Part shown: positions 3,934-33,239 of the stretch, piece after piece | How positions within the stretch are numbered: position 1 is the first letter of the stretch | Layout of the letters: every line of letters begins with the position of its first letter | IMG/VR virus record: IMGVR_UViG_3300042691_049879 | Coordinates: 4,801 to 68,800 of that record | Direction: 5' to 3' (one strand) | DNA length: 64,000 nt | Source of the DNA: a virus | The notes under the pieces: generated by a model | The model's input: the letters and a program-made list of their open reading frames with translations, nothing else | Databases searched by the model: none | What the model was told of the DNA's origin: nothing | Made by a program: the position numbers and the translations under genes

Positions 3934-5157
3934 TTATATTAAAGATAAAAATCTTTCATAATTTGCCTTATCTATTTCAAAGCCAAGCTCTTTTCCTTGA
4001 ATTGGAATTTGCCCAGATTCAATTTTATTTTGTACTTCTGGTAAATCTTTTATTTTTAATTTATCAAAATTATATAATGATTTCGCTATATTTTTATCGA
4101 TTTTATTTATTTCAGACCAAATAATAAAATCTTTTTCATCAACAGAGTCTTTAATTGACTCTTTTGCTGTTAAAAGTTTTGAAAAAGAATTTATGTCAAT
4201 TAAATATGATTCTGATTTTTTAAAATCTGTAAATAACTTTAAAAAATCTAATAAAAATTTAATAGCTCTTTTTTCTTCATTATTATATTTCATTTCAGTC
4301 AATGTTGATACTACCGATTCAACATTATTGTTTTTAAGAATAAAAGAAACTACAAGAATAGGATTTTTACTACTTATAAAATTAGTGTTTATATTTAATT
4401 TTGGAAACATTCTTTTCATTATCCCAAAATTGTATAAGTCATTTAAAAAAACTTTTGGTTCTTTTGATTTTTTTAATCCAGCATAAAACTCATCTCTAAT
4501 TCTTTCACTTGAAACGCCTGGCATTTCACTGTATTTTAAAATCGCTTTTTTTGTTTTATCATCCAAGTCTCCACCAGTAATATTTTTAAATCTAATAGCT
4601 CTCATTATTCTAAGCCTATCTTCATAAAATCTTTCTTCTGGTTCGCCTACAGTTTTTATTGTGCCAGTTAATAAATCATCAACCCCACCATGAAAATCTA
4701 TGATTTTATTTTCATCAACATCATAATATAAAGCATTTATAGTTAAATCTCTTCTATTGGCATCTTGTTCTATGGTTGAATGCTTAACTTCAGTCGGCCT
4801 TCTACCACTTCCATCATAACTTTCAGACCTAAAAGTTGCTATTTCAACTTCTTCACCATTTATAATAGCAGATACAACGCCAAATGCTTCTCCTTTAGGG
4901 AAATTGTCTATATTGTTTTTATTTAATATGTCAACAACTTCTTCTGGTGTTGCTTCAGTTGCTACATCATAATCTTTTGGCGTCTTTTTTTGTAAAGAAT
5001 CTCTTACTGCGCCTCCAACAACATAAATTTTATAGCCAGAGTCTTTAAAAGCATTATTCAAAACTTCAATTTCATATGGCAGGTCCATCTTAAAAGAAAT
5101 CTCTTTAGTTTCTTTTAAGATTCCAGATAAAAACATATTTCTTCTAACGTTATTCAT
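3934..5157 (-). CDS. cca: CCA-adding tRNA nucleotidyltransferase (PolyA_pol family)
   Basis: VVGGAVRD, KDYDVAT, EIATFRSE, DANRRDLTINALYYD, FYEDRLRIMRAIRF, VSSERIRDE. Confidence 0.9.
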   Translation of the reverse strand: MNNVRRNMFLSGILKETKEISFKMDLPYEIEVLNNAFKDSGYKIYVVGGAVRDSLQKKTPKDYDVATEATPEEVVDILNKNNIDNFPKGEAFGVVSAIINGEEVEIATFRSESYDGSGRRPTEVKHSTIEQDANRRDLTINALYYDVDENKIIDFHGGVDDLLTGTIKTVGEPEERFYEDRLRIMRAIRFKNITGGDLDDKTKKAILKYSEMPGVSSERIRDEFYAGLKKSKEPKVFLNDLYNFGIMKRMFPKLNINTNFISSKNPILVVSFILKNNNVESVVSTLTEMKYNNEEKRAIKFLLDFLKLFTDFKKSESYLIDINSFSKLLTAKESIKDSVDEKDFIIWSEINKIDKNIAKSLYNFDKLKIKDLPEVQNKIESGQIPIQGKELGFEIDKANYERFLSLI

Positions 5158-21753: not shown

Positions 21754-22221
21754 TTGGAAAATTTAAGAAAAATAATTAGACAAATTTTAAAAGAATATGT
21801 TGAACATTCAACAGTATTGTCTAATTATGAATTTTACGCTTCTCCTTACGTAGTTTCAAAAATGCTTAATGACATAAGAAATGTTGGAAAACATTTAGAT
21901 TCTAACTTTCTAAAAAATATAGAAGGCTTACAAGTCCTTTCCATAAATGAAAGAGATGGTAAATTGGTTTGTGAAATAGGATATCCAGATGGAACAGTTG
22001 TACTATTTTATAAATCTGGGAGGGGTACTAGTGGTAAACAAAAAGGGTCCTGGTTTCCAATACCTGGTTTTACAAGAAATGCTTTTGAAAATCGTGGACA
22101 AATATTTCCAGAAGGTTGGTTTGTAAAAGGTTCTCTATCAGAAGTTTCTAATAGATACGGCAGTAGAGTTTTTAATTATACTGCCGATTATCTATTAGCT
22201 AATGAAAATGAAATTTTTTGA
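21754..22221 (+). CDS. Hypothetical protein with LRKIIRQILKE tag
   Basis: TTG start right after previous stop. Confidence 0.6.
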   Translation: MENLRKIIRQILKEYVEHSTVLSNYEFYASPYVVSKMLNDIRNVGKHLDSNFLKNIEGLQVLSINERDGKLVCEIGYPDGTVVLFYKSGRGTSGKQKGSWFPIPGFTRNAFENRGQIFPEGWFVKGSLSEVSNRYGSRVFNYTADYLLANENEIF

Positions 22222-22477
22222 CAAAAAACGAGCGTAACCCACATTCTGTTTTAATTCATCATTTATCTTTGCCGCCAACCCGACATCATAGAACAGCTCA
22301 CCTTCTCTGTCTGTTTGCGTTGCATCCTCGGCAGTAAAAGCGACTTGGTAAAGATTCGAACTTTACTATCCCTGCAAATGGGTTATTGCCAATTAATTTT
22401 ATCTAAGTCTCCTGCCTTAAGCTGTGATGTGTGGAGTTTCCTCTCTTTCGAGCGATGAATCCTCTTTTTTCTGTCAA
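22216..22477 (-). ncRNA. rnpB: RNase P RNA, compact, with S-domain replaced by a tRNA-like element
   Basis: GAGGAAACUCCACA pairs with ACAGAAUGUGGGUUA (P4 with bulged U); P1 end pairing; P2 GAUUCAUCG/UGAUGAAUU; P3 CUCGAAAGAG; P5 CAUC/GAUG followed by CAA; P6 ACAGC/GCUGU; P7 GGCAG/CUGCC; P16 GACA/UGUC; L15 GGU. Confidence 0.88.
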
Positions 22478-22486
22478 ATATTTATA

Positions 22487-22894
22487 TTATGCTAAAACTT
22501 CTTCAGCCACTTTTCTTACCTCAGAATTATCTGCTTTTCCCTGAAACTTTTTATTGAACGCTCCCATAATCATTCCAATATTATTAGCGCCATCATTAAC
22601 AATAATTTCAACTTCTTTTCTCACTTCTTCTGTTGTCATTAATTTAGGCAAATAATCATTTAGTATATTAAGTTGAAATTCAGATTCAACGTCTCCAGAC
22701 TTAATTGATTCTTTAAGAGATTTTTCAACTTTCTTTAAAATGCTCATAACATTTTCGTCAGTTGATTCAACTCCTCTTCCTTCAGCATTTTGAATTTCAC
22801 CTTTAATAACTCCAAGAAAATTCTTTTTTTCCATTTCTTTGCTCTTAAAGGCTGTCATAAAATCTTGATTGATTTTTTCTTTTAAAGTTGTCAT
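22487..22894 (-). CDS. GatB/YqeY domain protein
   Basis: LKEKINQDFMTAFKSK...YLPKLMT.EE...MGAFNKKFQGKAD. Confidence 0.85.
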   Translation of the reverse strand: MTTLKEKINQDFMTAFKSKEMEKKNFLGVIKGEIQNAEGRGVESTDENVMSILKKVEKSLKESIKSGDVESEFQLNILNDYLPKLMTTEEVRKEVEIIVNDGANNIGMIMGAFNKKFQGKADNSEVRKVAEEVLA

Positions 22895-22966
22895 AATATT
22901 TTTTTACTAATTAATTTTTATAATACAAATTTAAACATAAAATTGCAGAACAAAAAATTTTAATTG

Positions 22967-23038
22967 AGACAGCGAAGAGAATCGAACTCTTCTAAATGGG
23001 TTTGCAATCCATCACCTCTGCCGCTCGGTCACGCTGTC
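22967..23038 (-). tRNA. tRNA-Cys(GCA)
   Basis: Cloverleaf; loop UUGCAAA; U73. Confidence 0.9.
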
Positions 23039-23043
23039 ATTAT

Positions 23044-23121
23044 TGGAGCCTTATGAGGGACTCAAACCCCCGACCTGCTGAGTACAAATCAGCTGCTCTA
23101 AGTCAACTGAGCTAATAAGGC
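23044..23121 (-). tRNA. tRNA-Thr(UGU), CCA encoded
   Basis: GCUGA-UUUGUAC-UCAGC. Confidence 0.9.
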
Positions 23122-23131
23122 ATTATATATG

Positions 23132-23205
23132 TACTCCCAGAAAGATTCAAACTTTCAACCTCCGAATCCGTAGTTCGGCACTCTATTCAATTGAGCTATA
23201 GGAGC
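23132..23205 (-). tRNA. tRNA-Arg(ACG)
   Basis: CCGAA-CUACGGA-UUCGG. Confidence 0.9.
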
Positions 23206-23213
23206 ATTTATTG

Positions 23214-23287
23214 TACGCCTAAGTGGAATTGAACCACTGACCTCTTGATTATCAGTCAAGTGCTCTAACCAACTGAGCTATAGGCGT
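23214..23287 (-). tRNA. tRNA-Ile(GAU)
   Basis: CUUGA-CUGAUAA-UCAAG. Confidence 0.92.
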
Positions 23288-23293
23288 ATGTTG

Positions 23294-23366
23294 CGCACCA
23301 GGCAAGATTCGAACTCGCAACTACTAGTTTTGGAGGCTAGTACCCATACCATAGGGTCTCTGATGC
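23294..23366 (-). tRNA. tRNA-Trp(CCA)
   Basis: Loop CUCCAAA, G73, T-arm GUUCGAAUC. Confidence 0.85.
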
Positions 23367-23450
23367 ATTTTGTAGCTCAAACAAACATTTAATTAAGCTC
23401 AACTTAAAATATTAATGAGCTTTAAATATTACTTTTTGAGCTGTATTTTG

Positions 23451-23523
23451 AGCAAGAGATGGGGTTCAAACCCACGGCCTTCTGAGTGGAAGTCAGATGC
23501 TCTATCAACTGAGCTACTCTTGC
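23451..23523 (-). tRNA. tRNA-Gly(UCC)
   Basis: UCUGA-CUUCCAC-UCAGA, U73. Confidence 0.9.
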
Positions 23524-23531
23524 ATATGTTG

Positions 23532-23609
23532 TGGGGATAGAAGGACTCGAACCTCCGTGTGGTATGCTTGATTTACAGTCAAGTGCAGTCGCCGCTGTGC
23601 CATATCCCC
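23532..23609 (-). tRNA. tRNA-Tyr(GUA)
   Basis: CUUGA-CUGUAAA-UCAAG. Confidence 0.9.
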
Positions 23610-23666
23610 ATTTTCCGATTTTCTTTAATTTTCAGTTTGCGGTATCGGACTACCATTTCTGCTACG

Positions 23667-23792
23667 TGGACGGAGCTAGATTCGAACTAACATTAACCAT
23701 TTAGGTGTTTAGTGTACTGCTAAACTTGCTTGCCGACAATCGAGGTTTGGAATAGGCGATAATCCAAACTGACATGCCATTGCCATCCGTCC
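23667..23792 (-). ncRNA. Oversized tRNA-like RNA (126 nt) with extra arms
   Basis: Acceptor GGACGGA/UCCGUCC-A, T-arm GUUAG-UUCGAAU-CUAGC, D-like arm, three internal hairpins, no canonical anticodon loop. Confidence 0.65.
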
Positions 23793-23795
23793 TTA

Positions 23796-23872
23796 TGGTG
23801 GAGCTGGGCGGGCTCAAACCGCCGACCCCTGCAGTGCAAGTGCAGTGCTCTAGTCAACTGAGCTACAACCCC
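23796..23872 (-). tRNA. tRNA-Ala(UGC), CCA encoded
   Basis: G3-U70 pair; loop CUUGCAC. Confidence 0.92.
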
Positions 23873-23885
23873 ATAATAATTAAAA

Positions 23886-24804
23886 GCTTGAGACTACAGC
23901 TTTTGCAACAATACTTTCATCCTTACATTCCTTTAAGTGCTACCTTATTGGTTTGAGATTTATCCACAGTGTCCCTTTCAGGTATCTGTATATTGTCATC
24001 GCTGCCTTTTTTGAAGAGTGGCATTTCTCTTATCAATACTAACTACTCGACATTTCGAATCATCACCTGTCTTGCGGACATTAATTACGCTTTTAACGCT
24101 TATTAGAAAATCTTCTACTTTATCAAACGACTTTCCCTTGCGAGGTCCATCGCTCCTGTTATCTTAAAGACCAGGAATTAAGCGACTTTTCGTTTAGTAT
24201 TTGTTCCAGACTTTTGCTTTTAATTTGCTTGATGAAGGAGTTGAACCTTCGACCTATTGTTTAAGAGACAATCACTCTACCAACTGAGTTAATCTAGCTT
24301 TTTTACCTACTAAGTTGTGCTGGAACCATTGCTTCATTCTCTTTTGAAGAACAAAATACAACACAACTCTATGCGTTTCGGCTTGCGGCCTACTGTACAG
24401 AAATTAACTTTAATTTTCATCAAAGCTTATTCAAGATTACTACGACAACTTTAACATCATCGCCTCACCTCTCATTCTGGAGTCTAGCCCTTGATTTGCG
24501 GTCTCGAACAGTACTCCTACACCTTATCCATACTCTAGACTACGTGACTTGGATATGATAGATAACGCATCCCTGCATCTATTTGTGTCCAGCATCGCCT
24601 AACACTTATCCTTTCCAAAGGACTATCTAATCACTTACGCCTTTCACTCCGCTTGGTTACGAAGTCTGCTGTTGGCAGCAGGGGACGGTGCTTGCTTGAA
24701 TTGACCATAAAATGGCGGGTAGTTGTAGGCAACTTTCCCCTTCACATCATTGCTGATGTTTATCTTTCTTCGTGACGCCATAAGACATCACAACCTTCTC
24801 AAGC
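23886..24804 (-). ncRNA. Large ornate ncRNA, GOLLD-like (~920 nt)
   Basis: ORF-free and GC-elevated; 5' GCUUGAGA pairs with 3' UCUCAAGC; several GCAA tetraloop hairpins on the minus strand; lies in a tRNA operon and contains a tRNA. Confidence 0.65.
24226..24298 (-). tRNA. tRNA-Lys(CUU) embedded in the large ncRNA
   Basis: AUUGU-CUCUUAA-ACAAU; one acceptor mismatch. Confidence 0.85.
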
Positions 24805-24844
24805 AAAGGTAATTTTTTTAATATTTCAAAGAACTTATTTTCAG

Positions 24845-24920
24845 TAGGGTAGACAGGGCTCGAACCTGCAGTAATGTCCTCATCCCAAATGAGGCGACTT
24901 GCCAATTAGTCTACTACCCT
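24845..24920 (-). tRNA. tRNA-Pro(UGG)
   Basis: CCUCA-UUUGGGA-UGAGG. Confidence 0.88.
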
Positions 24921-33116: not shown

Positions 33117-33164
33117 ATATTAAAACTTACTTTTTTCACATTAATCGGAATTTAGATTGTGCTT

Positions 33165-33239
33165 TTTACCTTGTTGGAGTCGAACCAACATTCTCTCGGC
33201 TAACCGCCGAGCGCCCTACCAATTTACTACCAAAGGTAA
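33165..33239 (-). tRNA. Atypical tRNA-like RNA, GUU anticodon with G33
   Basis: UUACCUU/AAGGUAA acceptor, CUCGG-CGGUUAG-CCGAG, perfect T-arm, unpaired D-arm. Confidence 0.55.

Follow-up and report, generated by a model that had tools for sequence, protein, structure and literature searches.

Ribonuclease P (RNase P) RNA, the ribozyme that trims new transfer RNAs (tRNAs), is regarded as universal in cells. The bacterial type A RNA is about 380 nt long, and the archaeal type T RNA of the Thermoproteaceae has lost nearly the whole specificity domain (S-domain) and is still a tRNA 5′-processing enzyme. Here we analyze a phage-encoded RNase P RNA bearing a tRNA-like insert, located on the minus strand of a 64,000-nt stretch of viral DNA (positions 4,801 to 68,800 of IMG/VR record IMGVR_UViG_3300042691_049879; hereafter the window). 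With a probability of roughly 0.6, we consider it a working phage mini RNase P RNA with a lineage-specific, tRNA-derived expansion of its tip. Several described systems lie close to it. Type T RNA, a natural RNase P RNA without S-domain, is the subject of a modelling paper (PMC3579882), and the catalytic domain (C-domain) of Escherichia coli RNase P RNA alone cleaves with reduced efficiency (PMC5839562). An RNase P-like RNA of camelpox virus, which resembles bacterial and archaeal RNase P RNA, showed no pre-tRNA processing in vitro (PMC3001073). RNase P, the L1 stalk and T-boxes read the tRNA elbow by stacking, via two interdigitated T-loops, and viral tRNA-like structures such as that of turnip yellow mosaic virus (TYMV) or those of the mascRNA type hold a T-loop and a partner loop inside a non-tRNA RNA (PMC4810234). 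A literature search found no paper on phage RNase P RNAs, although supplementary tables of large phage or non-coding RNA surveys might list some. Phage GenBank records gave no match with the RNA (blastn) or with the surrounding 10 kb (megablast).

The record from which the window was taken is 68.8 kb long, with an estimated completeness of 26%, and belongs to a large freshwater phage. An initial annotation, made from the letters alone, had proposed a complete catalytic domain within about 260 nt. Direct reading confirmed this proposal: P1, P2, P3, a P4 with bulged U, P5, the P6 pseudoknot, P7 and P15–P17 with a GGU motif in L15 were all identified (Table 1), while P18 is absent, ten bases (AAAGAUAAAU) connecting the 3′ strand of P15 to the 3′ strand of P2. 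The Rfam search that the annotation had suggested, run with E-value thresholds, aligned the model RNaseP_arch over its full length (positions 1–288 of 288) to 22471–22223 with 54.1 bits and an E value of 1.8e-14 (5.9e-16 in a repeat search), a score below the Rfam gathering score of 84. A scan of the window at gathering thresholds consequently listed only 22 tRNAs, and RNase P was absent from that list. Within the RNase P clan (CL00002) only the best model, RNaseP_arch, was given. Our own covariance model R1 matched the window at 22216–22480.

Covariation among phage homologues, a further check proposed beforehand, proved strong for the helices of the catalytic domain. In alignment A5, which comprises 56 distinct members from phage and metagenome contigs and to which P4 and P6 were added as pseudoknots, 93.6% of 2,993 cells were standard pairs compared with 68.4% in shuffles, and double changes occurred at 51 of 62 pairs, these counts leaning towards the model because A5 was fitted to it. 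None of 500 shuffles reached any of five measures. When the pairing partner was shifted by 1–3 columns, pairing in A5 fell to 33–42%. Owing to this slid control and to the many pair types observed, we regard the fold as real. The bulged U of P4 was found in 55 of the 56 members, with double changes at 5 of 7 P4 pairs. The P6 pseudoknot exhibited double changes at all six pairs across the family, and P7 was paired in 98.9% of cells with double changes at four of its five pairs. Most members carry a GGU-type L15. P3 is longer in L006, a syntenic sister phage, than in the window. The RNA is thus a genuine member of the RNase P RNA family with a complete bacterial-type catalytic domain, without P18 and without specificity domain.

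With bacterial type A RNase P RNA (rnpB, M1 RNA; RF00010) it shares P1–P5, P7, the bulged-U P4 in CR-I- and CR-V-like sequence, P6, and P15–P17 with a GGU L15. One relative, L029, matched RF00010 over its full length (E 2.5e-06), leaving the 24 positions of the P18 region empty. The phage RNA differs from type A in its length (about 260 nt, the RF00010 model having 367 positions) and in the lack of P18; type A P8–P14 with the J11/12–J12/11 T-loop pair were not found in the window RNA. Furthermore, it is phage-encoded, scores under the Rfam cut-offs and has no cognate protein gene that we could find. Type T RNAs share the natural loss of the S-domain, but they are archaeal, function with archaeal proteins and have a different P15–P17 region, whereas here a bacterial-type core is carried by a phage. 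The C-domain of the E. coli RNA is a laboratory construct; in the phage family, by contrast, the reduction is natural and conserved in 56 RNAs, and the stub left in place of the S-domain is conserved as well. The camelpox RNA, although likewise virus-encoded, comes from an animal virus and lies outside tRNA arrays, whereas the phage family displays strong covariation of its core.

The relatives were gathered by pattern scans and subsequent searches with R1. A scan for GAGGAAANTCC and ACAGAANNNGGNTTA separated by a gap of 165–195 returned 6 loci, among which L006 was the only close relative; it shares about 70% nucleotide identity and the order tRNAs, YqeY, RNA with the window. The other five were larger phage RNase P RNAs without the T-arm described below. 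R1 was built from the window and L006. Another pattern, containing GAGGATGCAAC, returned L006 and L008, the latter being a false match in coding sequence. A family pattern scan of virus contigs, which took in contigs with a AGATAAATGAT motif, yielded 58 loci and 47 R1 matches, and a clade pattern scan of metagenome contigs yielded 26 loci and 28 R1 matches. The clade pattern had 0 matches in a 185,579-species genome collection, which speaks for a phage-specific RNA. One copy was kept per duplicate. L033, L039, L049, L072 and L078 (P7 unaligned) as well as L089 (contig end) were dropped, L060 was searched and fell below the E 1e-4 limit, and L023 was added. Altogether, 57 sources searched with R1 resulted in the 56 members. 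At the loci L009–L021, which had been selected by YqeY, no RNase P was found within 2.5 kb; whole-record searches of YqeY loci detected the RNA in 2 of 10 records.

The neighborhood and the protein inventory of these members bear on what the RNA might do. In 29 of the 56 members a tRNA gene lies within 2 kb of the RNA, and the strand of all 177 such tRNAs is that of the RNA; 20 loci, many of which are short, yielded no tRNA at all. The RNase P protein RnpA (PF00825) was not found in the window's own, 26% complete record and was absent from five of five RNA-carrying records that are 95–100% complete, the control being positive in 10 of 14 cellular genomes. A host protein would have to serve. 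That no phage RnpA was found would also suit an inactive decoy, a role raised in the initial annotation, in which the RNA, instead of cleaving pre-tRNA, would sequester host RnpA or other factors that bind tRNA in the course of infection. The Rfam score under the gathering cut-off and the inactivity in vitro of the poxvirus RNA (PMC3001073) point in the same direction. However, family covariation preserves exactly the catalytic elements, namely the bulged-U P4, the P6 knot and the GGU of L15, and the constant placement in same-strand tRNA arrays suits processing better than sequestration. A decoy or RnpA sponge fits poorly with such a core, and we consider it very improbable.

Inside P7, at the place of P8–P14, the annotation had described an insert that folds like a tRNA. 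All sequence elements quoted for it are present, and a partly tRNA-like piece consisting of a stem, a T-arm and a GG-containing loop indeed occupies this site. The acceptor-like stem had a pairing probability of 0.77–0.91. The T-arm comprises 5 bp with equivalents of the closing pair G53–C61 and of U54, U55, C56, R57 and A58, fits the loop consensus UUCRANY, and directly abuts the acceptor-like 3′ strand without a spacer. The remainder of the proposed tRNA fold was weak: the pairing probability of the D-stem was close to 0, with 4 nt instead of 2 between the acceptor-like stem and the candidate D-stem, and the CCC/GGG arm (0.38) was outcompeted by a GCAA/UUGC hairpin (0.57), which is also chosen in the minimum free energy (MFE) fold. 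A full cloverleaf reached –2.7 kcal/mol compared with –8.8 for the MFE fold, and neither a free 3′ end nor a CCA is present in the tip. The searches with tRNA models that had been suggested turned out negative. The Rfam tRNA model (RF00005), applied to stretches of 501 and 81 bases, returned nothing at E ≤ 10, and ARAGORN reported no tRNA at the tip on the RNA strand with default settings, -ps or -ps80 (thresholds to 80%). TYMV-type and mascRNA-type structures are located at RNA 3′ ends and recognized by tRNA enzymes (PMC4810234), whereas this tip is internal, closed by P7 of the ribozyme, and lacks a stable D-stem and a full anticodon arm.

These rejections by tRNA detectors would be expected if the tRNA likeness were a coincidence, that is, if ordinary AU-rich expansion hairpins happened to carry a loop reading UUCGAAU. 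The stability of the tip is likewise ordinary (z –0.36, 71 of 200 shuffles folding as well), and a long identity to the tRNAs of the window was not found, the best being 13 nt of the T-loop. However, when the inner 54 nt were shuffled 1,000,000 times, a T-arm arose anywhere in 445 shuffles and abutting the 3′ strand in 9. The minus strand of the 64-kb window contains the T-arm motif 20 times and the plus strand a single time; as placed by eye, 16 of the minus-strand motifs lie in tRNAs called by ARAGORN, 3 in other tRNA-like elements and one in the RNase P tip, so that apart from the single plus-strand match the motif is otherwise confined to tRNA and tRNA-like genes. The best global alignment of the tip against 489 phage tRNAs, which passes through the D-loop-like UUGG-CAAU and the T-loop, scored 12, while 20 shuffled tips scored 5 or less. 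The T-arm is not a product of chance, and a full cloverleaf is absent. Coincidence thus appears highly improbable, and the tip is probably tRNA-derived. We read it as an old or remodelled tRNA-derived piece and not as a recently captured tRNA gene.

Other T-arms of this phage also lie outside called tRNAs. A perfect one (GTTGG-TTCGACT-CCAAC) is found at 33189 within an element at about 33150–33230 on the minus strand, between tRNA-His and tRNA-Lys, for which neither ARAGORN nor Rfam called a tRNA; this may be another non-canonical tRNA-like element. Two further T-arms outside called tRNAs are situated at 23691 and 36340, both on the minus strand. Together with the RNase P tip, the phage has at least four T-arm-bearing elements that are not tRNAs.

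Of the S-domain, only P7 and a small stub inside it are left, and across the family the content of P7 has one ground plan: GA on the 5′ side, then a short stem with a variable tip, and on the 3′ side a linker of 7 nt. GA was seen in 52 of 56 members, and 51 linkers have seven letters, with G1 in 46, U3 in 45 and A7 in all 51. The acceptor-like stem of the window is homologous to the family-wide stub stem, whose helix 10 covaries; in L006 this stem has double changes at three pairs, and its mismatch falls on the same position as that of the window. In length, the P7 content spans 19 to 131 nt: it is 24 nt or shorter in 31 members (a stem with a 4–7-nt loop), 25–60 nt in 12 and above 60 nt in 13. 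The shortest tips are a tetraloop. The long ones are mutually unrelated, the exception being a module of about 110 nt that is conserved in four distinct members; others are long rods, e.g., in L086. The tip of L006 (L006:5505–5564), for instance, folds best as a long imperfect rod of repeated GUAAAAU-type words with an MFE of –12.3 kcal/mol (z –4.2), a stability reached by 0 of 200 shuffles. The stub tip is thus a hot spot for expansion in this family.

The module of about 110 nt, GUUAAAGCUG ... AAGGGUU ... AACCCnGAAAGACCCGA, lies inside P7 at L029:3204–3312, L106:8485–8596, L056:228–341 and L025:3517–3657. It may be a true S-domain in reduced form, and the family may have started from this state. 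At the corresponding site the window has only P7, stub and tip, the Rfam alignment setting 54 unaligned bases against 82 S-domain model positions. That the insert might simply be a normal reduced S-domain had been named as an outcome that would overturn the tRNA interpretation; model R2, built from the four-member module, gave no match to the window at E ≤ 10. For the same reason we rejected the tip as a decayed copy of the module, despite a short resemblance by eye (GGGAUA..GUAA).

The annotation had proposed that a captured tRNA elbow replaces the S-domain, and it had named a lack of conservation of the D- and T-loop features in homologues as a refuting result. The T-arm was found in only 1 of the 56 members, the window itself. 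Where the window has its T-loop, L006 shows a loop of 4 nt or, more probably, a rod; its hairpin GUAAAA-UCUA-UUUUAC was considered as a T-arm homologue, which is uncertain, since the L006 tip folds best as one rod. The next relatives, L093, L098 and L103 (204–210 bits), possess a 42-nt tip without T-loop. Five loci were returned by a scan for GTTCGAATC flanked by the P7 anchors of the family, a number close to chance as reckoned by hand, and an RNase P RNA was not among them. The refuting result named beforehand was thus obtained, and the replacement of the S-domain by an elbow is unsupported.

As an elbow surrogate, the T-loop UUCGAAU, locked by the upstream GG and situated at the end of a stack of P7, stub stem and T-stem, would stack on the elbow of the substrate and partly restore the measuring function of the S-domain. 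The canonical T-arm adjoins a 7-bp stem as in a tRNA, all conserved T-loop positions are intact, and the GG resides in a D-loop-like AAUUGGCA that aligns to D-loops of phage tRNAs. Moreover, RNase P, the L1 stalk and T-boxes dock the elbow by stacking on T-loop-built platforms (PMC4810234); the known platforms, however, consist of two interdigitated T-loops and not of a tRNA elbow. In addition, 55 of 56 members, among them the syntenic sister, lack the element, most members have a stub of only 19–24 nt, no D-stem is predicted, and the MFE fold is better than the cloverleaf by 6 kcal/mol. Most stubs being tiny, most members lack a plausible reader of the tRNA elbow, and with 24 nt or less in P7 of 31 members the family evidently manages without one. 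An elbow surrogate in the window RNA is hence unlikely. A working elbow mimic on an S-domain-less RNase P, which restores length measurement by a structure unlike interdigitated T-loops, seems a little less likely still.

Environmental sequence data provided additional information on the tip. Six possible source samples aside, runs of 10 studies contained all or a large part of the 801-nt stretch around the RNA, most of these runs being labelled freshwater or lake. Two metatranscriptome runs from two studies contained short contigs that agree with the window at every position and span the tip with both of its junctions without a break (X18, 22327–22484; X20, 22238–22460; each representing the whole contig). 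They would fit an RNA that retains the tip and is not cut. In run X13 there was no cover over 22343–22396 and contigs stopped at the edges of the tip, from which we draw no inference. Contigs of lower likeness in X10, X13 and X20, which skip 72–73 bases and have 15–19 other letters between, represent short-stub members of the family and not spliced forms. These lake runs thus contain other short-stub members (on 22256–22430), one of which equals the L032 stub by eye. With other family members in the same samples, several phages with different versions of the RNA co-occur. No variation within the lineage was recovered from reads in the tip.

The unbroken contigs are also relevant to the possibility that the tip is a processing or recruitment handle. 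Here, the stem and T-arm would mimic a minihelix for host RNase P, RNase Z or T-loop modification enzymes and so lead to cleavage, modification or stabilization, which includes the self-substrate considered in the annotation. An acceptor-like stem stacked on a T-arm does exist, and with P1 beginning 10 nt past the stop codon of the YqeY-like open reading frame (ORF), the RNA must be freed from a longer transcript. However, the tip has no free 3′ end or CCA, since its 3′ strand is continuous with the conserved linker and with P7. GA and linker, which flank the tip, occur throughout the family and are hence unrelated to it, the element is confined to one lineage, and the two RNA-library contigs run unbroken over both tip junctions, a weak argument given that they could be DNA or precursors. 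We therefore regard a handle as very unlikely.

A working mini RNase P RNA with a lineage-specific tip expansion remains the explanation we prefer. The RNA would be co-transcribed with the phage tRNA array, pair with the RnpA protein of the host and add 5′-leader cutting capacity for tightly packed phage pre-tRNAs. The tip would be a lineage-specific accessory or passenger and not the substrate-reading device of the family. That the RNA is catalytic is inferred, as are the protein partner, the co-transcription and the origin of the tip. The tip itself is a real, so far singleton embellishment of a phage mini RNase P RNA and may have a function particular to its lineage.

Several observations weigh against this explanation. 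The canonical nucleotides of the T-arm and the upstream GG are intact where a neutral passenger should decay, which hints at selection on the tip. Closer relatives exist, with a YqeY 78–90% identical to that of the window, and they lie outside the set of 56 members. The RNaseP_arch score stays below the gathering score. The record G005, which holds L017 and represents a 257-kb, 100% complete related jumbo phage with a YqeY homologue, had no match to the RNase P model; the RNA is thus not universal or essential among such phages. The contigs from RNA libraries may derive from DNA, cannot show ends and do not prove transcription. Finally, a crude test found an encoded CCA after only 2 of the 23 tRNA genes of the window. 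With so few encoded CCA ends, a contact between the conserved GGU of L15 and CCA would need earlier 3′ maturation or be weakly used.

If the preferred explanation is correct, conserved half-sized RNase P RNAs near the tRNA arrays of large phages would show that viruses bring their own tRNA-maturation catalyst, and the family would show an enzyme that has repeatedly been run in nature without its elbow-reading domain. The same minimal scaffold ends in a tetraloop stub, in long rods, in an S-domain-like module or in a tRNA-derived T-arm and thereby constitutes a natural experiment. Because these natural tips differ on one scaffold, the contribution of an elbow reader is directly testable by tip swaps. 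Should the tip be an elbow mimic after all, it would be evidence from nature that elbow readers made of RNA are modular and that a tRNA itself can serve to rebuild them.

Table 1. Coordinates of the mini RNase P RNA, its structural elements and its neighbors in the window
Feature	Position	Strand	Remarks
Mini RNase P RNA gene	22218–22477	–	About 260 nt from outer P1 pair to outer P1 pair; Rfam RNaseP_arch and own model R1
P1, 5′ strand	22462–22477	–	Pairs with 22218–22232, small bulge in each strand; P1 helices 1–3 covary
P2, 5′ strand	22454–22461	–	Pairs with 22253–22260; helix 4
P3 hairpin CUC-GAAA-GAG	22443–22452	–	Helix 5
P4, 5′ strand AAC(U)CCAC with bulged U, within CR-I-like GAGGAAACUCC	22431–22438	–	Pairs with GUGGGUU 22236–22242; helix 6
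P6 pseudoknot, 5′ strand ACAGCU	22420–22425	–	Pairs with AGCUGU 22293–22298 in the P17 loop; helix 8
P7, 5′ strand GGCAG	22412–22416	–	Pairs with CUGCC 22330–22334; helix 9
68-nt tRNA-like tip of the stub	22342–22409	–	Within P7 (22416–22412 / 22334–22330); flanked by 5′ GA and 3′ GCUUUUA
Acceptor-like stem, 5′ strand GACUUAG	22403–22409	–	Pairs with CCAAGUC 22342–22348; one A-C mismatch, 6/7 pairs
D-region-like single strand with AAUUGGCA	22383–22402	–	GG at 22389–22390; best alignment to the D-loop of phage tRNAs
Hairpin CCC-AUUUGCA-GGG, anticodon-arm-like	22370–22382	–	3 bp, 7-nt loop; competes with GCAA/UUGC hairpin
Canonical T-arm UAAAG-UUCGAAU-CUUUA	22349–22365	–	Probability 0.92
7-nt 3′ linker GCUUUUA	22335–22341	–	Internal loop of the S-domain stub with 5′ GA at 22410–22411
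P15–P16–P17 arm	22273–22319	–	L15 loop GGGUUG (22276–22281) with GGU motif; helices 12–14 covary
YqeY-like ORF	22487–22894	–	135 aa, PF09424; between tRNA array and RNA; syntenic in L006
Nearest block of 10 tRNA genes	22966–24920	–	Upstream of the RNA, same strand

The RNase P RNA gene forms the 3′ end of the same-strand tRNA array of the phage. ARAGORN placed 23 tRNA genes on the minus strand across the window, and the spacers within the arrays, read from its coordinates, are often 5–9 nt. A promoter and terminator scan revealed no terminator-like site, and promoter-like matches were near chance. On the opposite side, a convergent ORF of 155 aa (21754–22221, plus strand) ends within the last bases of P1 (22218–22221), such that the 3′ end of the RNA overlaps the stop codon of that gene. 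As for YqeY, 215 homologues were found at E ≤ 1e-20, and the YqeY-bearing phage loci that were fetched lie mostly amid tRNA genes, which hints that the phage YqeY could have a tRNA-related role.

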